NCBI GenBank assembly: GCA_022360715.1
Contig: JAKSCG010000237.1
Location: 34,232 to 98,231, forward strand
DNA from: Halanaerobiales bacterium
GTDB lineage: Bacteria > Bacillota > Halanaerobiia > Halanaerobiales > DTU029
Direction of reading: 5' to 3'
Length of the DNA: 64,000 nucleotides
Shown: one piece after another, positions 30,312 through 41,891 of the stretch
How positions within the stretch are numbered: the first letter of the stretch is position 1
Layout: the number at the start of each line of letters is the position of its first letter
The notes under the pieces: model-generated
What the model saw: only the letters and a program-made list of their open reading frames with translations
What the model was told of the DNA's origin: nothing
The model's database searches: none
Program-made: the position numbers and the translations under genes

Positions 30312-31466
30312 TTATTTAATCGGTTTCCCTTGCCTGAGCCAATCATACTCAATTAAACGTCTGGCGATCCTCCACCACCGGCTGGCCGGTAAAAAATAGT
30401 AGGCCGGATCTTTTTGGTGATAGAAATTACTGAAGGCCGGTTTTACCTGCCCGGCCCCGACATCAAAAAAACAACTGGCATATCCCTTGTACTTTTTGTC
30501 CGGAAGACTCCCGGTAGCTAATGCCAATACATTGGAAATAATAATATTTTTTTGCAGGGTAGTGACTGCTCCCATCATCGGGAGGTATTTACCGGAAGGG
30601 GTTTTAATGATCGTAGAATCACCCATGGCAAAGAGGTCGTTAGCGGCATATAAGTATTGGGGATCAACCGGCATCCACCCGGATTCATCCCCTAACTCAC
30701 TATTCCGAATAACCGTCTGTCCCTTATATACCGGGGCATATAAGAGGAGGTCATAAGGTGCAGTAAAACCGGTAAACTTTAGTTTTTGGGCGGCCGGATC
30801 AATACTCTCAAACTGGGAAGCAGTCTTCACCCTGATCTGATGCCGGTCCAGTTCCTTACTGATACACTTATTTAAATCATTGGAAACCTCAATTAACGGT
30901 CTTTCCAGGGGGGTATAGATCGTTAATTGATATTGACCTTTTAACCCCTTTTTGATCAGTAAGCTATTTAAGAGAATTGCCGCCTCATAAAGAGCTGTTG
31001 GGCAGAGGTCAGGCAATGAGGTTTTAACAATGGCTATTTCTCCCCCAGTAAAAATGTTTAGTCCCGCACAGAGCCCTTTAATCCCCTCCAGGGTATGCAG
31101 ATTATGGCCAACTCCGGTCAAATCGGGGAAAACCGCGGGGTCAGCCTCAGTCCCGGTAGCCACTACCAGGATATCATAGGTAATCGGTTCCCTATTTTTC
31201 AAGATAATTTTTTTGGTAACCGGTTTAATTTCCAGTGCCTCATCGTGGATAAATTCCAGGCCGGGAGGAAATACTCCTGCCAGGTTCCGGTAGATATCCC
31301 GTTCTTTCCTCTCGCCAATCATTAACCAATAAAGGGAAGGTTGAAAGTACTGTCGTAACCTCTTTTCAATTAAAATCACCTGATTACCGGCCGGTAATTT
31401 CTGGCGAATCTTTTTGGCCACAACCAAGCCACCTATTCCAGCTCCAAGTACAACTACTTTAACCAC
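30312..31466 (-). CDS. FAD-dependent pyridine-nucleotide-disulfide oxidoreductase (SQR/NDH-2-like)
   Basis: GTG start with AAGGGGG 8 nt upstream. N-terminal KVVVLGAGIGG dinucleotide fold. A second Rossmann segment (EIAIVKT). C-terminal FAMGDS motif. Confidence 0.7.
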   Translation of the reverse strand: MVKVVVLGAGIGGLVVAKKIRQKLPAGNQVILIEKRLRQYFQPSLYWLMIGERKERDIYRNLAGVFPPGLEFIHDEALEIKPVTKKIILKNREPITYDILVVATGTEADPAVFPDLTGVGHNLHTLEGIKGLCAGLNIFTGGEIAIVKTSLPDLCPTALYEAAILLNSLLIKKGLKGQYQLTIYTPLERPLIEVSNDLNKCISKELDRHQIRVKTASQFESIDPAAQKLKFTGFTAPYDLLLYAPVYKGQTVIRNSELGDESGWMPVDPQYLYAANDLFAMGDSTIIKTPSGKYLPMMGAVTTLQKNIIISNVLALATGSLPDKKYKGYASCFFDVGAGQVKPAFSNFYHQKDPAYYFLPASRWWRIARRLIEYDWLRQGKPIK

Positions 31467-31572
31467 CTGGCTAGCCCCCTTTGGACAAATAAAATTTAAG
31501 CTTAGTTTTTCACTAACCCGGCTCTTCTATACCGAATTATTCGGCCGATCGAAGTATTCCTTTGAGCAAAAC

Positions 31573-31608
31573 AAAAAAAGCACTATGAAAAAAACGCTTC
31601 CATAGTGC
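31573..31608 (-). terminator. Terminator closing the GbsR/ArsA/ABC/LolA-like/OMP gene string
   Basis: The minus strand reads GCACUAUG-(13-nt loop)-CAUAGUGC followed by U7. The arms are at 31601..31608 and 31580..31587, about 22 nt after the stop at 31631. Confidence 0.6.
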
Positions 31609-31630
31609 CGATAGTGCTTAAAGATTATAT

Positions 31631-32728
31631 TTAAAAAGAATAACTTAAGGCTGTCTCTATCCCCCCAATCCTTTTTTCATCTGCACTGGCTAATATTTTA
31701 TCTGGGTCTCCCAGTTGGTAAAACCCACTCAAGTTTAGACTTAAATTACTCCCCAGGTCGACCTGATAACTGGGTTGAAGAACCATACTGCCATCGTCCA
31801 AACTGCTGATTACGGTAAAATTTAGAGCCGAAAAATCATCAAGGGGATAGTTAATATTTCCAATCAAAAAGTTAAGGTATTCTCCGGCCGGTATTACTCC
31901 GCTCAACAATTCCCCTTTTTCCAAAACCAGGTATTCCAGCTGGGCGGTAATCAATTGATCATAGTGATAGGTATAGCTATAATCACCGCCTAAAAGTAGG
32001 ACTAGATTACCCTGTTCCCTTTGATCCCAATGATAGTAGCCCAAGGCACTATAAACTCCCAATGGGCCGAGATCCCCCTTGGCTGTTAGCCCGGCTCTGG
32101 TACAGGTCAGTACTTCTCCGGCAACCTGATCGGTCGCATGATTCATTAAGCCGTTTAGTTCGGTCAGATTAATTGCCGGTTCACGGATCAAGCTGGCAGT
32201 CAGGTCATAACCTTTATATCCGGCCCGACCCCTGATCCCCCATTTAATTTTACCTGTTCCACTAAAATTGGAAGCAACCAACGCTAAATTGGAGTTCCAG
32301 TTTAGTGGAACGTAAAGGGCCACCGCATCCTGATATTTCCCGATAGTTTCTTGCTTGATCGCTTCTGCTCCCAGGCTGTAATCAACCGGGTTGAGCATTG
32401 AGCCAAAAGACCATGAGATCGGCTGGCGCCCCACCGTTAAATAAAATTGATCAAACTTTCGCTTTAAATATAGTTTCTGAAAGCTGATTCTCTCCCCGTT
32501 CAACAGCTCCGGATTATAAATCTTCAATTCCACTTTAGCATCGGTATCCCCAAACCTTGGGATTAATAATTCCAGCTGCAAGGTTTCCTGAAGCAGACTC
32601 TTAATCTCTCCTTGATAAATAGTACTGATCAGGTTAGCTTTAATCTCCCCTCCTATTTCGACCTGGGCGGAGACCGGAAGTACTATTAACAGAATTAAGA
32701 GTATTAGGCAAAAGATTTTTTGTGACAT
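31631..32728 (-). CDS. Putative outer-membrane beta-barrel protein (DUF1302-like; copy 2)
   Basis: Signal peptide (...PVSA|QVE). LTVGRQPISWSFGSMLNPVDYS motif. Amphipathic strands. Ends ...ETALSYSF. Paralog of the 21736..22890 product. Confidence 0.55.
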   Translation of the reverse strand: MSQKIFCLILLILLIVLPVSAQVEIGGEIKANLISTIYQGEIKSLLQETLQLELLIPRFGDTDAKVELKIYNPELLNGERISFQKLYLKRKFDQFYLTVGRQPISWSFGSMLNPVDYSLGAEAIKQETIGKYQDAVALYVPLNWNSNLALVASNFSGTGKIKWGIRGRAGYKGYDLTASLIREPAINLTELNGLMNHATDQVAGEVLTCTRAGLTAKGDLGPLGVYSALGYYHWDQREQGNLVLLLGGDYSYTYHYDQLITAQLEYLVLEKGELLSGVIPAGEYLNFLIGNINYPLDDFSALNFTVISSLDDGSMVLQPSYQVDLGSNLSLNLSGFYQLGDPDKILASADEKRIGGIETALSYSF

Positions 32729-32743
32729 AGCAATTCCCCCTCT

Positions 32744-33496
32744 TTATGACTGTAAACTCTCCAGGGTAAAGACCCCTTCCGCTATTTCCGGGTTAAACTC
32801 AATTGATAAGAGCTTAAACTCGGTCCGGGTATTTTCCCGCAGTTTATTCTCCATGACTGATTCGATTGGTATCCAGCGTTGATCGATCTGTTCAATCTTA
32901 TTGACCATACTTACCTTTAACAGACGGCCACTCCGGGCATATAGTTCTTCCTTTAATCCGACAAACCGCTCTTGATCAACCCAGATTACCCGGCGGTAAT
33001 ATGATACTTCTTTCCCTTCCCGGGCAATTCCTTCTAAGACATAACAGAGCCTCCCGTCTAATTCCTCTTCCTGTAGTATTTTAAATTGGTACAACTCGGT
33101 CAACTGATCTGATTCCATCATGTCCTGGTATGAGAAATCGCTGCCCATCATTGACTGATTGAGCATATGCCCGGAGATTTTTACTACATCCTCTGCTTCC
33201 GGGAAGAACATCCAGAGATCTTCCCCCCGTTTTAAGAACTTGGTACCCCGGTCCCGGGGATTAGTGAATTCGGTCAGGGCATTTTGATCATCACTGAGTG
33301 AACGCAAAGTCTTGGTCATCTTTCTCCCACCATTAACAATAATCATCTCTGCTTCGATTCTGGCTGAAATAATATATTCATTTTTATCCCGATAATTAAT
33401 TATTTCTTCCGCGGTAATTGCCGTTACTATCCCGGATAACCCAGTAATCAACAGTAAACTCAACAGCAAAATACCAACAATTGTGTTCTTTTTCAT
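32744..33496 (-). CDS. LolA-like 'outer membrane lipoprotein-sorting' family protein (copy 2)
   Basis: Signal peptide. Paralog of the 20929..21723 product with shared GSDxSYxD core and overall length. Confidence 0.6.
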   Translation of the reverse strand: MKKNTIVGILLLSLLLITGLSGIVTAITAEEIINYRDKNEYIISARIEAEMIIVNGGRKMTKTLRSLSDDQNALTEFTNPRDRGTKFLKRGEDLWMFFPEAEDVVKISGHMLNQSMMGSDFSYQDMMESDQLTELYQFKILQEEELDGRLCYVLEGIAREGKEVSYYRRVIWVDQERFVGLKEELYARSGRLLKVSMVNKIEQIDQRWIPIESVMENKLRENTRTEFKLLSIEFNPEIAEGVFTLESLQS

Positions 33497-33526
33497 GCTT
33501 AATCCCCTTTCAATATGTTTTTCAAG

Positions 33527-34783
33527 CTACAGATCCCGCAAAGCCTCGGACGGTTCCAGTCTCGCCGCCCGGCGAGCCGGAAAAATACAGGCAATAGCCG
33601 TAACTACTACCCCCAGAATAAAGGCAAAAACCATGTGGTCGACCGAAAAACTGGGGAAAATAATCGGGTCAATTAAAAATCCTTCCATACCGGACATCGC
33701 TTGACTATAATCAATCCCATGGACTGATAAAAAGCGGGTAATCATCCCCCCGAACAATGAACCAAGCAGACTGCCGATTATTCCCATTACCGCACCTTCC
33801 ATCACAATAAGTTTCAGGATATCTCTGCCCTGCAACCCGAGGGCGGCCATCATACCGATCTCCTGCGTCCTCTCTTTAACAATCATCACCATCGTATTAA
33901 TGACCACTATGCTGGAAAGGAGTACCAGGAAAATGTAAATTAAGTCATAGATCTTGAGGGCAAGATCCATATAGGCCAAAAACTCATTGGCTTCCTGCCA
34001 GGTCAGGACAGAATACCGGCTGAGGGCATTCTTTGCGCTAAATAGTCGTTCGACCGCCGGGAAAAAAACATCGGCCTGGTTAGCATTAGGTGTAATCAAT
34101 AATAACTCGGTAACCTGGTCGGGCATTTCCAATAAATGCTGGGCCAGGTCGAGCGGCAGGAAAAAAATTCGCTCATTGATTAGGGGCAGATTACTGCTAA
34201 TCACCCCGACAATTCTAAAAGTAACTCCTTTAAAGGAATTAAAGGAATCAGTATATAAAAGGGTTACTTTATCCCCCACCCTTTTGTTCAGCTTCTCCAT
34301 TAAACCGTTACCCAACACTATTTCTTTTTCCCCATTTTGAATCATTCTTCCGGCCACCAGTTTCTCTTCTATTTTGGTAAATCTGTCTTCAAGCACTGGG
34401 TCAACCCCCCAGCCCAGCATGGTTATCGCCTCGTGCTCAGTACTGGCCATTGCCCCAAATTTAATGCGGGGAACCACCAGCTCGATCCCTTCCAGCTCAG
34501 TTAGCTGGTCAGTCATTACCGCAACTCCCTCCCCGTTAAAACCATCAACCGGATAGTTTAAAGAAAGAAGGCGTTGCTTCAAACGGTACTCTTGATTGAC
34601 TATTTTAATATGCCCTGTTTCGTATTGGATATAGAGGGAAAAGGTTGAGTCGATAAAGCCCATTAGTAGCCCTCTGGTAAAGACAATCACCGCTACTGAG
34701 ATTGCAATGGCAATGATTGATACTATTGACCTTAATCGGTTGCGCAATAAATTCTTGGCCGCTAAATTCCATAAAAAGATCAT
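33527..34783 (-). CDS. FtsX/MacB/LolC-type ABC transporter permease
   Basis: N-terminal TM (NLLRNRLRS...), a ~230-aa periplasmic domain and three C-terminal TMs (FtsX domain), ending PARRAARLEPSEALRDL. Confidence 0.8.
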   Translation of the reverse strand: MIFLWNLAAKNLLRNRLRSIVSIIAIAISVAVIVFTRGLLMGFIDSTFSLYIQYETGHIKIVNQEYRLKQRLLSLNYPVDGFNGEGVAVMTDQLTELEGIELVVPRIKFGAMASTEHEAITMLGWGVDPVLEDRFTKIEEKLVAGRMIQNGEKEIVLGNGLMEKLNKRVGDKVTLLYTDSFNSFKGVTFRIVGVISSNLPLINERIFFLPLDLAQHLLEMPDQVTELLLITPNANQADVFFPAVERLFSAKNALSRYSVLTWQEANEFLAYMDLALKIYDLIYIFLVLLSSIVVINTMVMIVKERTQEIGMMAALGLQGRDILKLIVMEGAVMGIIGSLLGSLFGGMITRFLSVHGIDYSQAMSGMEGFLIDPIIFPSFSVDHMVFAFILGVVVTAIACIFPARRAARLEPSEALRDL

Positions 34784-34798
34784 CAGACCCCCTCCTTT

Positions 34799-36043
34799 TT
34801 AACGGTGATAGATTGCCTTAACCGGGTCTTTCCCGGCGGCCCAGCGGGCCGGCAGTATACTTGCTAAAACAGCCACCACCACCCCAAAGAGCGCAATAAA
34901 CAAAAATGCCCCCGGATTCCAACCACCATATATTTTATCAATAATCGGAATACCGATATCGATCTCCCCCATGCCGAAAGCACTGAGGGCAATACCGAAT
35001 CGATTAAAGAAGGCTACGCTCACCCCGCCCAGGAAACAACCAATTAAACTACCGATCACGCCAATCCCCAGTGCTTCTATCATAAAAGCCAGGATAATCT
35101 CCCCTTCTTTTAAGCCCAGGGCCTTCATCATCCCTATTTCTTCTGTCCGTTCGATCGCCGAAAGAATAGTGGTATTAATGATTCCCACCGCAGCAATCAG
35201 AATAATAATCCCCAGAATAATTATATTTTCAATCTGAGATGCTTCCATCATCGCCAAAATTGATTGGGCTGATGCCTGCCAGGGATAAGCCCTTAAATCA
35301 GGATTAATTTTTGCTACCTTTTCGGTCAGCTGTCTGGCCGCAGTTGGCATTTCCCCTTGGTCTCCCCTAAACCGGATCACCAGCTGACTGACTTCATCAC
35401 CCAGATTGAGTGATTGCTGGGCGAGATCCAAGGGGACAAAAACAATATTATTATTGACATTGGGATTGGGGGTACTAATTAAACCGCTAATCTCCACATC
35501 AATTGTATTAAAAGTCCTTTCTCGGCTTCTAACCAACAAAGTTAAGTAATCTCCGACCTTCAGATCCATCAATTCCGCCAAACTCTGACCGAGGACCGCC
35601 TTCTCCTCCCCGGCTTTAAAGAACGAACCCTTGACAAAGTAATCACCGGTAGTAAAGACCTGATGATAGGTATTCGGCTCAATCCCCAGACCTAGCACCG
35701 GTAGTTCTTCAACCCCGTTGTTTAAATTGGCGTTGAACCTAAGTAACGGCGACATGCCCTGCAAGTTAGCCAGAGCTTTGATCTCTTCTGCCAGTTGGCC
35801 GTCTTTAACGAGCAGTTGGTCAAGCGGGTTCTTATCCTTCTCCTCCCAGTATTGCTCGGTCATCACCTGGAGATGCCCGGTCTCCAGATTAATGATGTTT
35901 TGATAAGACAACTCGGCAATCCCGATCATGATTGAATCAGTAACCAGATAAATTAAAATTGCCAGTGAGATTATAATCGCCGTAATTAGCGTCCTCTTTT
36001 TATGACGAAAGACATTCCTGAACCCCAGTTTAGCTATAAACAC
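34799..36043 (-). CDS. FtsX/MacB/LolE-type ABC transporter permease
   Basis: Track ORF runs to 36094, which would overlap the ATPase gene by 65 nt. GTG at 36043 has GGGGGAG 7 nt upstream and gives [18 protein letters not shown]..., the usual FtsX N-terminus. Same topology as its neighbour. Ends PARWAAGKDPVKAIYHR. Confidence 0.8.
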   Translation of the reverse strand: MFIAKLGFRNVFRHKKRTLITAIIISLAILIYLVTDSIMIGIAELSYQNIINLETGHLQVMTEQYWEEKDKNPLDQLLVKDGQLAEEIKALANLQGMSPLLRFNANLNNGVEELPVLGLGIEPNTYHQVFTTGDYFVKGSFFKAGEEKAVLGQSLAELMDLKVGDYLTLLVRSRERTFNTIDVEISGLISTPNPNVNNNIVFVPLDLAQQSLNLGDEVSQLVIRFRGDQGEMPTAARQLTEKVAKINPDLRAYPWQASAQSILAMMEASQIENIIILGIIILIAAVGIINTTILSAIERTEEIGMMKALGLKEGEIILAFMIEALGIGVIGSLIGCFLGGVSVAFFNRFGIALSAFGMGEIDIGIPIIDKIYGGWNPGAFLFIALFGVVVAVLASILPARWAAGKDPVKAIYHR

Positions 36044-36740
36044 CGGCTTTCTCCCCCTTTTGATCAATCGAGACCTCTCCGTCCCTGATCTCAATTAATC
36101 TGCTCGCATATTCCATAACCTGGGGGTCATGGGTGGAAAAAATAAATGTTGTCTTCAACTGCTGGTTCATCTTAACCATAATCTCCAGGATCTCAATGCT
36201 GGTTTTGGAGTCCAGATTGGCCGTAGGTTCATCGGCCAGGATCAATTTCGGTTCTTTGACCAAGGCCCGGGCAATGGCTACTCTCTGCTTCTGTCCCCCC
36301 GATAATTCGTTGGGCCGTCGGTTTTCCAGCCCTTCCAGTCCCACTGCTGCCAAAATATTTAGGACTATTTGCCGCCGTTCTTTGTCATTACGGTTATTGA
36401 CCAAGCGGACAGCAAACTCGACATTCTCAAAAGCAGTCAGCACAGGAATCAAATTATAGCTCTGGAAGACAAAGCCGATATTATACCGTCGGATTAAGGC
36501 CAACTCTTTTTTTGAAATACCGCCCAACTCCCGCTGATCAAAAGTAATTTGACCTGCTGTCGGCTTATCCAGACAGCCGATCATATTAAGGAGGGTCGTC
36601 TTCCCTGATCCTGACGGACCAAAGATAGTTGTAAATTCACCTGTTTCCACCGTCAGGTCAATTCCTTTTAAAGCAGGTACTTCTATTTTACCCTGCTGAT
36701 AAATCTTTTCTACACCTTTAAGTTCAATTAAGGTCATCAT
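36030..36740 (-). CDS. ABC transporter ATP-binding protein (MacB/LolD type)
   Basis: Walker [10 protein letters not shown], signature [15 protein letters not shown], Walker B LILADEPT. Confidence 0.9.
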
Positions 36741-36823
36741 TCTTTCCCCCTTATCATTAAATCCCTTAATCTGATCTGATCTCTGTGGCCGCCATTATCT
36801 GCCCCCCGGAGTCGCCAAAAGAG

Positions 36824-37981
36824 CTAAAAGGATAGATGTAGATACGAGTCCCGGTATTGAGCCTTCTTAATCGACTTATTGCTCAGGAGCTGAGGTAAAT
36901 GTAGTTTCTGTTTATAATCACCAATAGTAACAATTAAAATTCCTCCCTTTTGGTGCAGTCTAAACTTATCCCGCTGCAAAAAGGGGAGATACACCCGATA
37001 ATGATAACCGTCCCCTTCCTTCTCAACCGCCAAGGGAATTCCCCCGAAAAAGCTATCCAACGGATCTTCTTGCTGATATAGTAATCTGGAAACCGGTTTA
37101 AGGTTGTCAAGGCCCTTTAGTTCTTCACAAATTAAGGGTAAGGTAAAGACCCGTTGGGAGGAAAAAATCTTTTCAATTCTGGTCAGATTACTCCGCTGTC
37201 TGGCCAAGATCCGGTTATAAAAGTCGCTGTTGGCCTCAGGCAAAAATAATTTATTAACAATGATGCAATCGACCTTAAAGCCATATAAACTCAAATAAGT
37301 ATAAGCCCGTTGAGATTCATTAATGACCATCTCTTCCGGATTGAGCACCAATCTAACCGATGTTATTTCCGGATTAGTTAGTATTCCCTTGACCTCTTCC
37401 ATTTTCTGATAGATCTCCTCAATCGCTGTAAAAACATCTTCCTCGGGCAGGGGCAGTTCCATAAAACTATTACTAAAAGTCCGTAAAAACTTAATACTTT
37501 TCTTTTTAATTTTGAAAAATTTTTCCATATACCAACCAATTATATCAAAAAAACTAAGGAGACGAATCGCCGAAGCCGTTGGGGGAAAATCCATGATTAA
37601 AACATCATATCCCTTTTTTTTAAACTGTTCATGGATTTCCAATAAACTAAAAAGCTCCTCGACTCCCGGAAACATTGTTAATTCCTCTGCAAAAATATCT
37701 TTAATTCCCATCATCTTCAATAGATCAACTAAATACTGATAGATTTGCGCCCAGTGGTTTTCCAACTGGTGCTGGGGATTTAACTCCATACCATCCAGAT
37801 TTTTCAGGATAGTGGTCGGTTGATAATTTAAATCTACCCCCAATGAATCAGAAAGGCTGTGGGCCAGATCAGTACTAACCACCAGGGTCTTGATCCCTTT
37901 TCCCGCCAATTTAATCCCGGTAGCAGCCGCAATACTGGTTTTTCCAACTCCACCCTTCCCGGTATAAATAAGTATTCTCAT
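36824..37981 (-). CDS. ArsA/Get3-family P-loop ATPase with C-terminal HSP20-like domain
   Basis: ATG 37981 overlaps the upstream stop (ATGA). Deviant Walker A GKGGVGKTS. VVSTDLAHSLSD. The switch II region DFPPTASAIRLL lacks the canonical DTAPTGHT His. The C-terminal ~70 aa (DGYHYRVYLPFLQRDKFRLHQKGGILIVTIGDYKQKLHLP) resemble the ArsA_HSP20 domain. Confidence 0.75.
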   Translation of the reverse strand: MRILIYTGKGGVGKTSIAAATGIKLAGKGIKTLVVSTDLAHSLSDSLGVDLNYQPTTILKNLDGMELNPQHQLENHWAQIYQYLVDLLKMMGIKDIFAEELTMFPGVEELFSLLEIHEQFKKKGYDVLIMDFPPTASAIRLLSFFDIIGWYMEKFFKIKKKSIKFLRTFSNSFMELPLPEEDVFTAIEEIYQKMEEVKGILTNPEITSVRLVLNPEEMVINESQRAYTYLSLYGFKVDCIIVNKLFLPEANSDFYNRILARQRSNLTRIEKIFSSQRVFTLPLICEELKGLDNLKPVSRLLYQQEDPLDSFFGGIPLAVEKEGDGYHYRVYLPFLQRDKFRLHQKGGILIVTIGDYKQKLHLPQLLSNKSIKKAQYRDSYLHLSF

Positions 37982-38541
37982 CCTTCCACACCCCAATCCA
38001 CTGAAATTTCTTTTAATTGCTGGGGGAAAGGCCCACTGTCCAACTCTTTATCCAACAGGAAATAAATCCACTTTTCCCCTAGTTGGATGATCCGGATTAA
38101 TTCCTCAATCTTCTTTAAATCTCCTTCAATCAGCTGCTTTACCTCCTGACTGCTCCGGGACATAAGGTCTTGATAAGATTTAGTCGCCGGAACAATCGCC
38201 TCTTTAATCAGCCGGATTTGATTTAATTCCTTACTCTTTAATGCTTCTTGAAAAATTTTGTTAAAATCCCTTTCTGCTAAATAATAGTCTTTGCGGCTCC
38301 CCTTCATCCATATTTTCTGGACCATCTTTAATTTTAGCAGCAAACGAATATTAATACTGACCGTAGCCTTACTAACACCAAGTTTTTCCGCGATCTCATC
38401 CAGACATAAAGGGTTATCCTCAAAATACAACAGACCATAAATATAACCGATCGTTCGATTCATCCCGTAAGTATCAAGTGTTTGCCCCAGGGCTTCAATA
38501 ATAATTCTTCTAATCCCGTCGATCTCCTGATAACCTGTCAT
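37978..38541 (-). CDS. GbsR/COG1510-type MarR-like transcriptional regulator
   Basis: ATG 38541 has GGGGAGGGGG 4 nt upstream (track start is 38565). The wHTH NRTIGYIYGLLYFEDNPLCLDEIAEKLGVSKATVSINIRLLLKLKMVQKIWMKGSRKDYYLAERDF matches the GbsR-type pattern. Confidence 0.7.
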   Translation of the reverse strand: MTGYQEIDGIRRIIIEALGQTLDTYGMNRTIGYIYGLLYFEDNPLCLDEIAEKLGVSKATVSINIRLLLKLKMVQKIWMKGSRKDYYLAERDFNKIFQEALKSKELNQIRLIKEAIVPATKSYQDLMSRSSQEVKQLIEGDLKKIEELIRIIQLGEKWIYFLLDKELDSGPFPQQLKEISVDWGVEG

Positions 38542-38560
38542 CAAACCCCCTCCCCACTTT

Positions 38561-38602
38561 AACATTTAAAACATTTAATAAAAATTAAATGTTTTAAATG
38601 TT
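38561..38602. promoter_or_regulatory. Perfect 19+19-nt inverted repeat (candidate operator) at the predicted +1 of the GbsR-like gene
   Basis: AACATTTAAAACATTTAAT-aaaa-ATTAAATGTTTTAAATGTT. Each arm is itself two direct copies of AACATTTAA. It starts immediately downstream of the -10 box. Confidence 0.6.
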
Positions 38603-38608
38603 ACTTAC

Positions 38609-38637
38609 ATAATAATACACTAATCAAGGGCTGTCAA
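38609..38637 (-). promoter_or_regulatory. SigmaA promoter of the GbsR-like/ArsA-like operon
   Basis: The minus strand has TTGACA (38637..38632), a 17-nt spacer and TATTAT (38614..38609). Confidence 0.65.
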
Positions 38638-38643
38638 GAAAGA

Positions 38644-38673
38644 TTAAAACCCCCGGGGTTGATCCCCGGGGGG
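38644..38673 (-). terminator. Terminator after ompM copy 2
   Basis: The minus strand reads CCCCCGGGG-aucaa-CCCCGGGGG (9 GC pairs) followed by UUUUAA, about 25 nt after the stop at 38697. Confidence 0.75.
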
Positions 38674-38696
38674 TTAATCTTTGAGTTATAAGCTAA

Positions 38697-40898
38697 TTAA
38701 AAGGAGATACTAACACCGGCTTTGGCTGTTCTAACTTGATAATCATCGGCCCCGTTTAAGTCACCGTCGGTATCTTTTAAGGCAAGCAGCTGGTAATCAG
38801 CCTTGAAATCAATTCCGTCAGCAACCGTGTAGACTAAGCCAACTTGATTGCTATTATATTTACCAACTTCAGCTGTTTTTCCCTCTGCTTCTTTATTGCG
38901 ATAGTCATAACTTAATTTAACTGCACCCAAGGTGTAGCCAAGACCAAGATTGTATTCCATCGTCTCTTCATCTTTATCTTCGCCAATATCTTTAAAATTA
39001 AGCCCGGCCCGGACTACTAAGTCTTTAAATACCGGATAATCAATGACCTTTATCCCGTATTTGACGGTAACTACGTCTTGACCGGAGACATAAGCATCAT
39101 CTGCTACATTTTCATAACCCAACTCGGCTGTCAGGTAATCATTTGCGGTATACTTGACATCAAACTCGAGGGTTGTTTCTTCGACACCGGCTTCGACCGG
39201 GTCTTCAACGGTATATTCACCACTAAGAGTTAAGCCTTCAATTAGAACCGGCAGCGGCATTTCACCGGCCAGCGCCATCTTGGTCGTTTCATCACCGACT
39301 TCTTCTATGCTGGCGTAGAATAAACTGGCTTCCAACAAATCAGTTATCTGCTCGGTTAATTTGAAATTCCAACCGGTCATATCGGCTTGACCCAGCCCGG
39401 TGGTAAACCGATCATAGTCGCCGTTACCACTATCAAAGACTACATTATCTTGGCTAATTGGGGTAAAGTTTTCATCCCGGTTTTTGTAATTAAACTTCAA
39501 ATCGGCAAAAGGCAAGCCTGTACTGACCCCCAAACGGATCAATGAACCATTATCGGCAGCTTCCTGTTCCGGGATGGAGTGAGCGAAATCAAAATTCAGG
39601 TCTATTTCCCCGAACTGAGCATCTGTATCAATTCCCAAGATATTATGGTTCATATCTTCAACCTTAACAACCGTTCCACATTCACCGGTAAAAAACTCAT
39701 TCCGGGCCCGCCGGCTGGTAACGTTTACTCCGAGGTTCAGCCGGTCCAACTCAAATCTCTTCCTGGCCCCCATCACATAAAAGTCATCTTTATCTTCAAC
39801 CGGGTCCTGGTAAAGATTGGTTGTTGAGTCATACTTGTCATAAGTTGGAAAACCGTCTTTATAATCGATTGTACCGGGGACATCATATCCGGCCGTCCCA
39901 AAAAAGGTCTCTAAACCAAATTTCTTCCAGTCAACTACTAATCCGTTAATTTCGGCCTGGCTATAGGCATAGTCAGCTATGTCTACAACGTTTTTTTCCT
40001 TGTAGACTGCTTTGAGGGTTTCATTTTCCAAAATTAATTCAGCTTGATCTAAAACCAAAACGTCTTTAACATCGCTATCTTCATGTACATCCATTTTTAC
40101 AGCCGCAGAAAAGCCCTCTTTAACTATCTTGGCCTGCAAGTCCAGGGTCTGTTCCACTTTACCGTCAGATTGATCAGCGGCAATCTTTTCAGAATCATCA
40201 TCCCAGGGGTCAAGATAGACATACGGATCTTTATAATCCTCTTCCCCGGAATCATAACGACCGTCTTTATCTTTATCGATATATTTATCGACATCAGTAG
40301 CAATAACTCCGTCTTCAATATACTGATCCACCAAATCTACACTGTATTTCCCGCTAAAGCTAACTACCGGAGAAACCTTTTCTAAAGCAGCAACTCGCGC
40401 TTCCACGGCATCTACATCGGCATAGATTCCATCAATTTTCTGGCCGAGTATCTTTAACTCCGCTTTGAATTCAAAGGTTAAGGCCTCAATCAGATTAACC
40501 ACTTCTTCCACCTGCTGATCGCTTAAGTTTTTGGAAATTCCGCCTGCCGGTGGTTGGTTTTTAGCTAAAATAGCCTTGACAATTGCCGTTACATCCTCTG
40601 CCTGGGCTTTGCTTAAATTGTTAGCGGCATCGTCGATTTCCTCAGCCAGCATATTGCGTTCCAGTTCAATCTTGTCCAGGATCCGGCTTACTATGATCGC
40701 AATCTCATAGCGGGTCAGGTTGTTTTTCCCCTTAAAACTTCCGTCGGGATAACCCTCCGCGATACCGGAGGCCACTAACTTGTTTACGGCCCGATAAGCC
40801 CAGTGGTTTGCCGGTACATCAGTAAAGGGGTTGGCAAAGGCAGTTGTGGTGACAAAGATTGTCAATAAAAAAACCAGCAAAAAACTATATTTTTTCAT
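38697..40898 (-). CDS. ompM: OmpM-type porin/OM tether: SLH domain + coiled coil + beta-barrel (copy 2)
   Basis: 733 aa, collinear with copy 1. The first ~190 aa are almost identical. The insert at residues ~190-260 and several loops diverge. Ends ...AGVSISF. Confidence 0.85.
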   Translation of the reverse strand: MKKYSFLLVFLLTIFVTTTAFANPFTDVPANHWAYRAVNKLVASGIAEGYPDGSFKGKNNLTRYEIAIIVSRILDKIELERNMLAEEIDDAANNLSKAQAEDVTAIVKAILAKNQPPAGGISKNLSDQQVEEVVNLIEALTFEFKAELKILGQKIDGIYADVDAVEARVAALEKVSPVVSFSGKYSVDLVDQYIEDGVIATDVDKYIDKDKDGRYDSGEEDYKDPYVYLDPWDDDSEKIAADQSDGKVEQTLDLQAKIVKEGFSAAVKMDVHEDSDVKDVLVLDQAELILENETLKAVYKEKNVVDIADYAYSQAEINGLVVDWKKFGLETFFGTAGYDVPGTIDYKDGFPTYDKYDSTTNLYQDPVEDKDDFYVMGARKRFELDRLNLGVNVTSRRARNEFFTGECGTVVKVEDMNHNILGIDTDAQFGEIDLNFDFAHSIPEQEAADNGSLIRLGVSTGLPFADLKFNYKNRDENFTPISQDNVVFDSGNGDYDRFTTGLGQADMTGWNFKLTEQITDLLEASLFYASIEEVGDETTKMALAGEMPLPVLIEGLTLSGEYTVEDPVEAGVEETTLEFDVKYTANDYLTAELGYENVADDAYVSGQDVVTVKYGIKVIDYPVFKDLVVRAGLNFKDIGEDKDEETMEYNLGLGYTLGAVKLSYDYRNKEAEGKTAEVGKYNSNQVGLVYTVADGIDFKADYQLLALKDTDGDLNGADDYQVRTAKAGVSISF

Positions 40899-41456: not shown

Positions 41457-41891
41457 GTGGTAATAATCGGTGATAGAATATTAAGGCTCAGAAAAGAACT
41501 TAATTTAAACCAAAAGGAATTAGCAGAAAGTATTGGGATCACAGAGGCTAGTCTGTCACGATATGAAAATAACCTGCGGGAACCCAAAGCCGAAATTATT
41601 GCCAGAATATCAAAAGCTCTCGGCTGTTCTACTGATTATCTTCTAAAGCGGACAGACATAAAAAATCATGTTTTATCACCAGCAGAGAAGCTAGACCAAG
41701 ACAATATTAACTACAAAAATTACAAAGAGATCGAAAACAAGATTTTGGAAAAACTAATCGAAGAGGGACTGATTAAGGAAGACGAGTTTATTTCGGAAGA
41801 GGCGCTAGATAAGATAATCAAATATGGAATTGAAGCCGCGGTAGAGATATTGAAACTGGAAAGAGCAATAAAAAACAATCAACAAACTTAA
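41457..41891 (+). CDS. XRE-family HTH transcriptional regulator
   Basis: GTG start with AAGGGGGA 8 nt upstream. HTH_3 motif LRKELNLNQKELAESIGITEASLSRYENNLREPKAEIIARISKALGCSTDYLL. The ~75-aa C-terminal region has no motif I can name. Confidence 0.8.
   Translation: MVIIGDRILRLRKELNLNQKELAESIGITEASLSRYENNLREPKAEIIARISKALGCSTDYLLKRTDIKNHVLSPAEKLDQDNINYKNYKEIENKILEKLIEEGLIKEDEFISEEALDKIIKYGIEAAVEILKLERAIKNNQQT

Follow-up and report, generated by a model that had tools for sequence, protein, structure and literature searches.

Proteins in which a Get3/ArsA ATPase is followed by an alpha-crystallin domain are found in many bacterial phyla and their function is unknown (PMC6593721, PMC10248533). Farkas et al. 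(2019) placed these Get3 homologues in the bacterial 'Group 6', which is present in many non-photosynthetic phyla, Firmicutes included (PMC6593721). Two members were solved by Barlow et al. (2023), who named them Get3d (PMC10248533). In the field of envelope transport, the Halanaerobiales were described by Antunes et al. (2016) as having a Lol system which is likely complete: LolC/E and LolD flank a LolA homologue, and there is no LolB (PMC5007114). We will discuss here a locus where relatives of both are found side by side. It belongs to a stretch of 64,000 nucleotides (nt), which we will call the window, on one of the 256 contigs (C135) of the 4.0 Mb genome of a Halanaerobiales bacterium. 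Seven co-directional genes of the minus strand, from 38541 to 31631, lie there between one promoter-like site and one terminator. They code for a GbsR-like regulator, an ATPase with ArsA and HSP20 domains (ArsA-HSP20), an ATP-binding cassette (ABC) ATPase, two FtsX permeases, a LolA_like periplasmic protein and a predicted outer-membrane beta-barrel. These components belong to described classes. With respect to the literature searched, the novelty lies in their combination, in the tailed GbsR-like regulator and in the replacement of a TetR regulator; the initial annotation had suspected that the combination was uncharacterised, and we have found no description of it.

The explanation which we prefer, with a probability of about 0.55, is an exchange of regulatory heads: a Lol-like cassette would have been put under the control of a repressor and a Get3d-like ATPase, and the ATPase would dock its own repressor. 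The operon would be a chimera, made of two units which are conserved independently of each other. In unit A the translation of a GbsR-like repressor with a winged helix would be coupled to that of the ATPase, which is Get3d-like ('Group 6') and carries an alpha-crystallin domain. Unit B would be the envelope cassette found throughout the Halanaerobiales, headed by TetR elsewhere: a LolD-like ATPase, two LolC/E-like permeases, the LolA_like protein and a barrel with 18 strands. One sub-clade would have received unit A in place of the TetR head, without a change of chromosomal site. As to the mechanism, the repressor would bind a palindrome which overlaps the transcription start. Its C-terminal tail, I-x-V-[DE]-W, would dock on the alpha-crystallin domain of the ATPase, in the way that the IxI/V tails of small heat-shock proteins (sHSPs) occupy the beta4/beta8 groove. 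How strongly the whole operon is repressed, exporter included, might then depend on whether the ATPase has bound a nucleotide or a client. The exporter would be the regulated output; it would not receive a cargo from the ATPase.

The transporter cassette and its two heads

The LolA_like protein is found in most of the order: 39 of the 41 genomes have a homologue with at least 58% identity. Three genomes (G001, G002 and G007) have LolA_like genes but no ArsA at all. We have sampled eight loci without ArsA: all of them show the order ABC-FtsX-FtsX-LolA_like, usually followed by the barrel gene, and seven are headed by a TetR-family regulator. One of these TetR-headed cassettes is a second copy in the host genome itself (G000, contig C66; L038, 3272-7981). 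Its LolA_like protein is 68-69% identical and there is no barrel gene on its 3' side; this copy groups with the cassettes of G002 and G007, apart from the copy in the window. A further peculiarity is found in G016 (L040, 7388-9894), where an extra FtsX/MacB_PCD permease pair lies between the TetR and ABC genes, which gives four permeases in a row.

The other head, made of regulator and ATPase, is found in a well delimited clade. The homologues of the ATPase form a tight group at 55-99% identity, followed by a drop to 45% or less. Homologues are named Halanaerobiales bacterium or Natronospora cellulosivora. The gene order regulator - ArsA - ABC - FtsX - FtsX - LolA_like - barrel is the same in the 11 loci which we have examined from this clade (55-64% identity): the window, three other genomes (G004, G005 and G006) and seven metagenomic contigs or contigs of metagenome-assembled genomes (L030, L031, L126-L130). 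The flanking genes vary among several of them, which indicates that the seven genes move together. The initial annotation had named the lack of a conserved linkage between ArsA-HSP20 and the ABC genes as a refutation; within the clade this linkage is strictly conserved, and the refutation thus fails. The gap between the ArsA and ABC genes is variable: 17-46 nt in six loci (L030, L031, L126-L129), 83 nt in the window and 152 nt in L130. In G004, which is Natronospora cellulosivora, and only in this genome, an insertion of about 0.9 kb with a 176-aa (amino acid) nitroreductase-like fragment is found between both genes (L023, 5359-6273).

Outside the clade this association is not found. No ABC/LolA_like cassette is found near the ATPase homologues with 40-45% identity, which come from the Halanaerobiales genomes G003 and G021, from a Fervidibacter and from other contigs. 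We have also examined 80 diverse ArsA-HSP20 loci (L046-L125), which represent about 15 phyla as well as archaea; in none of them does such a cassette lie beside the ArsA-HSP20 gene. The 80 loci come from an alignment-based search of genome contigs; a search for ArsA-HSP20 with a single protein as query gave no matches in genome contigs.

Both types of head are found in a common context. In G001 the order of genes is yybS - L9 - LonC - TetR - ABC; in G005, G004 and L130 it is L9 - LonC - regulator - ArsA - ABC. The window has a block rpsF...L9 - LonC just 5'; an XRE gene and a paralogue of OmpM lie between this block and the regulator. The shared L9 - LonC context indicates that both heads occupy the same chromosomal site. 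We have also calculated a maximum-likelihood tree from the concatenated ABC, FtsX1, FtsX2 and LolA_like proteins. The TetR-headed cassette of G001 falls within a clade, with 99/100 support, which holds four ArsA-headed cassettes; the pair L030/L031 is found far off. A single clade of ArsA-headed cassettes is rejected on this tree (approximately unbiased test, AU p = 0.0045). This incongruence requires at least two exchanges of the head. The cassettes headed by TetR and devoid of ArsA, the nested one of G001 included, indicate that the transporter evidently works with either head and without the ATPase.

These results bear on the proposal of the initial annotation, a route from cytoplasm to outer membrane: the Get3-like ATPase would catch a hydrophobic cargo in the cytoplasm and deliver it to the ABC exporter, from which it would pass to the LolA_like carrier and to the barrel. 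Such a route agrees with the strict and long-lived linkage in the 11 loci of the clade, where the ArsA-ABC gap goes down to 17-27 nt. It would also agree with the modelled Get3 fold, which has a helical, presumably client-binding region with Met residues, while the derived switch II of this clade and the loss of a small partner protein, described below, could reflect a new partner. Nevertheless we consider the route improbable, mainly because the transporter evidently does its work whichever head it has, and also where the ATPase is missing, as in most of the order, in the nested G001 and in the host's own TetR-headed copy. Neither does the absence of the cassette from the 80 diverse loci fit with it. 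We looked for a tail-anchored client among the genes of the operon and found none, and the insertion between ArsA and ABC is tolerated in G004. Furthermore, transporters of the MacB/LolCDE type (type VII ABC, which work by mechanotransmission) take their substrates from the periplasmic side or the outer leaflet and not from the cytoplasm.

We return now to the head-exchange reading and to its unit B, which shares several features with the putative Lol system of Halanaerobiales and with LolCDE-LolA of E. coli. It has a single ABC ATPase of the LolD/DevA/MacB type (36030..36740; as all the genes of the operon, on the minus strand) and two LolC/E-like permeases with MacB_PCD and FtsX domains, at 34799..36094, with an uncertain start codon, and at 33527..34783. 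The LolA-fold periplasmic protein (32744..33496) matches PF17131 (2.8e-59) and has a signal peptide without lipobox Cys. These assignments come from Pfam and NCBIfam; the Lol equivalogs of NCBIfam are the nearest named families, with scores which stay under their cut-offs (LolD 224.9 vs 307.75 bits; lolCE 128 and 138.7 vs 362.45 bits). There are several differences with LolCDE-LolA. The carrier belongs to PF17131 (LolA_like), named TP_0789-like in newer Pfam; we have found no informative literature on either name. A barrel gene with 18 predicted strands follows, and the cassette would be under the control of a repressor, either TetR or the GbsR-like/ArsA pair. No LolB has been reported for Halanaerobiales (PMC5007114). 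The canonical LolA family, PF03548, has no match in the whole host genome, so the LolA_like protein is presumably the LolA homologue found by Antunes et al. (2016). The cassette of the window matches the cluster which was proposed as the Lol system of Halanaerobiales; transport of lipoproteins is its putative function, as put forward in that work (PMC5007114).

The last gene of the cassette (31631..32728) codes for the predicted outer-membrane beta-barrel, a protein of 365 aa with a signal peptide and a C-terminal ...LSYSF. It has no match in Pfam or NCBIfam. Its AlphaFold2 (AF2) model, with a predicted local distance difference test score (pLDDT) of 78.7, has 18 strands, and Foldseek finds it porin/AlgE-like. 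This family is present in Halanaerobiales, Atribacterota and Aerophobetes. MacAB-TolC has the same MacB_PCD and FtsX domains, but the operon has no membrane fusion protein (MFP/HlyD) gene and its outer-membrane protein is an 18-strand barrel, not TolC-like.

The ATPase and the tails of its neighbours

The ATPase (36824-37981) has 385 aa and is the only ArsA homologue in the host genome. Residues 1-307 form the Get3/ArsA domain (37061..37981), with scores of 3.1e-87 for PF02374 and 246.8 bits for TIGR00345 (cut-off 135). The HSP20/alpha-crystallin-like domain covers approximately residues 317-385 (36824..37033, stop codon included); its PF17886 match (9.3e-16) extends over residues 328-390 of the open reading frame (ORF). 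In the AF2 model (pLDDT 81.7) a Get3 fold is followed by a seven-strand beta-sandwich (317-384); a helical pair, residues 136-202, has three Met and a lower pLDDT. Nothing is missing from its catalytic motifs: the alignments show no variation in the deviant Walker A GKGGVGKT or in the Asp residues of switch I and Walker B. The clade also keeps the invariant residues of the alpha-crystallin domain. CXXC is absent: the archaeal 'sdCefC' of 3zq6 is aligned with 'nsdfy' in the window protein. The switch II is DFPPTASAIRLL (37556..37591); it has the form D[FC]PPT[AG]S in all members of the clade linked to the operon and DCAPTG[EAS]T in the outgroup ArsA-HSP20 proteins. The protein had initially been described as atypical by its single P-loop, its switch II and its HSP20-like domain. 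All three features are found, but the protein is not an unknown oddity: it belongs to the Group 6/Get3d class, more than 5,600 proteins have the same two-domain architecture, and only the switch II is specific of the clade.

With the Get3d proteins used for comparison, Nostoc All4481 (3igf/8egk) and Arabidopsis At1g26090 (8elf), the ATPase shares PF02374 and PF17886, a single Get3/ArsA domain with deviant Walker A, the absence of CXXC and a C-terminal alpha-crystallin domain with seven strands. NosGet3d (8egk) and AtGet3d (8elf) are the only structures which align over the full length of the fold (about 400 columns). However, the closest PDB matches of the ATPase domain are the archaeal Get3 structures 3zq6 and 3ug6: it is nearer to 3zq6 (1.8e-49) than to NosGet3d (2e-20) and AtGet3d (5e-10). 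Other differences are the intact catalytic motifs, which set it apart from NosGet3d, the D[FC]PPT[AG]S switch II, the host, which is a non-photosynthetic anaerobe, and the operon context, in which the gene is joined to those of a regulator and of an envelope exporter. The score for the NosAFP equivalog NF050088 is 152.5 bits vs a cut-off of 325, which corresponds to the same architectural class and not to an equivalog. Full-length ArsA-HSP20 homologues are found in Archaeoglobaceae, Thermoplasmatota, Methanocellales, Aminicenantes, Spirochaetota, Dormibacterota, Actinomycetota, Poribacteria and others (L046-L125). As they span these phyla, the class is not tied to photosynthesis, contrary to the title of the Get3d paper.

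The ArsA of the E. coli ars operon belongs to the same P-loop superfamily, has the same Pfam domain and is also preceded by a winged-helix regulator gene. In contrast with it, the window ATPase has a single and not a double domain. A role in arsenic resistance was rejected: besides the single domain, the switch II is DFPPTAS instead of DTAPTGHT, there are no metalloid motifs or metalloid-binding Cys, and no ars gene (arsB, acr3 or arsD) is found among the seven. The score for the arsenical-pump family TIGR04291 is 97.9 bits vs a cut-off of 650.

The regulator (37978..38541) has 187 aa from its likely ATG; the longest ORF starts at 38565. It is a winged-helix protein of the GbsR/MarR type, the name which NCBI gives to its homologues, and it matches HTH_5. 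In NCBIfam it reaches 111.5 bits (3.7e-32) with CudC, under the cut-off of 218, so that it does not count as a CudC equivalog and the likeness is limited to the level of the family; the operon is devoid of choline or betaine genes. Its close homologues are few, 39 at E <= 1e-8, and they share contigs one-to-one with the ArsA clade. Twenty of the 21 regulators linked to ArsA have a C-terminal extension ...GP-x5-[EKQR]-I-x-[VI]-[DE]-W-x2-4. In the window this tail is ...QQLKEISVDWGVEG (EISVDW); the codons of the proposed docking motif I-S-V-D-W are found at 37993..38007. The entire tail is absent from relatives of the regulator with 164 aa (P0271-P0276); the one which was examined is not linked to ArsA.

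Similar tails are found beside ArsA-HSP20 genes in other groups. In the 80 diverse loci we have scored the pattern [KRQTHEN]-[IV]-x-[IVL]-[EDKQSG] in the ORF immediately downstream on the same strand. The downstream ORF has a tail of the IxI type in 31 of 69 cases. In the controls it is present in 14 of 712 genes with at least 150 aa (2%) and in 9 of 1701 random small ORFs; the Fisher p values are about 1e-25 and 1e-39. On the upstream side, the tail is carried by MarR-type regulators of approximately 158-190 aa in 7/69 cases. The Halanaerobiales paralogues with 40% identity (G003 and G021) have both: upstream a MarR protein which ends in ...KIEIE, downstream overlapping ORFs of 73-75 aa which end in ...INIE or ...IEIK. 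The same layout is apparent in L045 (...KKISIE and ...KTIDIE), and L032 has ...KKVKID. Pfam has no family for the small IxI-tailed partner proteins, and in the literature searched we found no publication on the MarR - ArsA-HSP20 - small-protein cassettes. They are found in Bacillota and in other phyla (G003, G021, L045, L047, L051, L066, L077) and have a tailed winged-helix regulator immediately upstream of the ATPase, as in the window. The window differs from them by its GbsR-like regulator, by a tail IxV[DE]W with 2-4 additional residues, by the absence of a small downstream partner and by the five envelope-transport genes which follow.

The carriers of the tail belong to three unrelated families: small helical proteins, MarR proteins and GbsR-like regulators. 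They have in common only the tail and their position beside ArsA-HSP20. IxI/V tails of sHSPs are known to bind the beta4/beta8 groove of alpha-crystallin domains, also in trans, as do the IPV motifs of BAG3 with HSPB8/HSPB6. The presence of the tail in three unrelated families adjacent to ArsA-HSP20 leads to an economical explanation, namely that it binds the alpha-crystallin domain of the ATPase. By analogy with the sHSPs, the tail of the window regulator probably docks in the same way.

The ATPase could instead be a quality-control chaperone, a holdase or insertion helper for the membrane or secreted products of the operon, such as the permeases and the barrel precursor, co-induced with them and without any regulatory role, in which case the tail would serve some other purpose. 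An alpha-crystallin domain does suggest chaperone activity (PMC6593721), Get3 homologues are reported to act as holdases independent of ATP (PMC3613179), and cotranscription with four envelope proteins is likely. We regard this role as unlikely: it leaves unexplained the IxI tails of three unrelated neighbouring families and the constant presence of a regulator, GbsR-like or MarR, beside the Halanaerobiales ATPase, and the TetR-headed cassettes need no such helper.

Two other features of these loci should be mentioned. The ArsA-HSP20 loci of cyanobacteria are mostly without an IxI-tailed neighbour. In five loci of Dormibacterota, Chloroflexia and Verrucomicrobia (L054, L059, L067, L081 and L108) the ORF upstream of ArsA-HSP20 ends in a hydrophobic stretch and a few residues (for example ...LILIAAFVVTRINP). 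These ORFs look tail-anchored, hence their products are possible clients.

Limits of the probable operon and the candidate operator

The seven genes probably form one operon transcribed into a single mRNA, as judged from their sequence. The promoter-like site, of the sigma-70 type, is TTGACA-17-TATTAT at 38637..38609. It agrees with the consensus in 11 of 12 positions, and it is the best site and the sole 11/12 match in the 8.2 kb which we have scanned (31000-39200). It is found directly after the intrinsic terminator of the upstream gene (38672-38650; a 9-bp stem made only of GC pairs, then a T-run), which sets the 5' limit of the unit. TTGACA/TATAAT-like sites are also found 5' of the regulator gene in L030 and L031. 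At the other end the unit is closed by an intrinsic terminator (31579..31609) with a stem of 13 pairs followed by TTTTTTGTTT. Each of the seven genes has a G-rich Shine-Dalgarno sequence. The junctions are, in order, -4, 83, an overlap, 15, 30 and 15 nt: the regulator stop and the ArsA start share ATGA, and apart from the gap of 83 nt all junctions are short or overlapping, as it had been noted initially.

Between 38637 and 31573 we have found no convincing internal promoter or terminator, again in agreement with the initial annotation. The scan of the same 8.2 kb gives 20 promoter-like hits vs 16.1 in shuffled sequences and 9 terminator-like hits vs 9.4, so that neither kind is commoner overall than in the shuffles. 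The terminator-like hits within coding regions (33971, 33612 and 33229) were dismissed: they have no real T-tract and their count is that expected from shuffling. The consensus scan, taken alone, is compatible with weak internal promoters. The 83-nt spacer between ArsA and ABC (36741..36823) has no U-tract hairpin, terminator, stable structure or promoter-like match; it folds worse than shuffled sequences (z = +1.68). Rfam has no match anywhere in 31000-39200, this gap included, and neither Rfam nor folding of the gap RNA indicates an attenuator or riboswitch at this junction.

A division into two abutting transcription units would start from this same gap: an autoregulated pair of regulator and ArsA would be followed by an ABC cassette with its own unrecognised promoter in the gap or near it. 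The ArsA-ABC gap is indeed the longest junction: it has 83 nt in the window and 152 nt in L130, and in G004 it reaches about 0.9 kb; trios of MarR, ArsA and a small protein stand alone elsewhere, and non-canonical promoters are beyond the reach of a consensus scan. On the other hand there is neither a terminator nor a stable hairpin after ArsA, and the gaps of 17-46 nt in six loci are too short for a promoter and a leader. Also, TetR has been lost from the cassette in every ArsA-headed locus, which with two units would leave the cassette without a dedicated regulator. Among the explanations considered here we find this one the least probable.

The palindrome is perfect, with arms of 20 nt and a spacer of 4 nt (38560..38603). 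It has the -10 element on one side and the ribosome-binding site on the other, a classic position for an autorepressor. In the window, L030 and L031, inverted repeats with a core CRTTTAA...TTAAAYG follow directly on the -10 and precede the regulator gene; in L022 they are also found upstream of it. The palindrome is a candidate operator, to which the GbsR-like regulator would bind. A different repeat, AACTAAAGT(A), is found upstream of the regulator gene in L021 (8480-8600), L030 (9255-9290) and L031 (9250-9290); it is absent from the window.

The genes at both sides do not belong to the unit. Upstream, at 38697-40898 (minus strand), there is a porin of 733 aa with an S-layer homology (SLH) domain, OmpM-like, and then an XRE gene at 41457-41891. 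Both are inserted in the window between the LonC-like gene and the regulator; in the relatives LonC is directly followed by the head of the cassette. On the 3' side, directly after the operon terminator, 30312-31466 (minus strand) codes for a pyridine-nucleotide disulfide oxidoreductase with a GTG start. Its best NCBIfam match is type III sulfide:quinone reductase, selenoprotein subtype, with 171.6 bits vs a cut-off of 525.

A proposed control of the repressor by a chaperone

The control which we propose for the operon has precedents. Repressors and other regulators are controlled by chaperone titration in the pairs HspR-DnaK, HrcA-GroEL and sigma32-DnaK. The proposed logic would be the same, a chaperone which binds its own regulator, and it would add from BAG3 a short IxI/V peptide placed in an alpha-crystallin groove. 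The likeness is one of analogy: the protein families are different, the chaperone would be here an ATPase of the Get3 type and the output would be an envelope exporter.

Several points weigh against the exchange of heads and the docked repressor. In the window the tail motif is followed by Trp and four more residues, unlike the KxIxIE tails found elsewhere, which are strictly C-terminal. The structures solved for Get3d show the alpha-crystallin domain packed against the interface of the Get3 dimer, with no peptide binding reported (PMC10248533). The single mRNA is deduced from the DNA sequence. The exchange may also have gone in the opposite direction, as a reversion from the pair to TetR instead of a swap from TetR to the pair. 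Finally, the strict linkage in the 11 loci and the switch II derived in this clade are equally compatible with a direct tie between ATPase and transporter, and they keep models of direct function alive.

A more general suggestion, which we put forward only tentatively and consider rather doubtful, is that the alpha-crystallin domain of Get3d-like proteins may be a receptor in trans for I-x-I/V tails. In the Halanaerobiales clade of the window, ATPase and repressor would form a switch titrated by clients, which would set the Lol-like system according to the cytoplasmic load of hydrophobic clients or membrane proteins.

In most genomes the ATPase is found in small self-contained cassettes, which give no hint of what it serves; the clade described here gives a concrete handle on this question. 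It offers a protein contact open to test, that of the tail (...EISVDW...) with the alpha-crystallin domain, a candidate operator, and a cultured relative with the same operon, Natronospora cellulosivora, in which the signal sensed by the ATPase could be studied. The sister genomes keep TetR over the same cassette: they provide a natural experiment on a regulator-ATPase pair wired to a recognisable output. The proposed Lol system of Halanaerobiales appears to be controlled by repressors and is present in two copies in the host, which bears on whether it is a housekeeping pathway for lipoproteins. If the more general suggestion on the tail receptor is true, a physiological output could be named for the first time for this widespread class of ATPases, and the diderm Firmicutes would have an envelope-stress circuit of a novel type.

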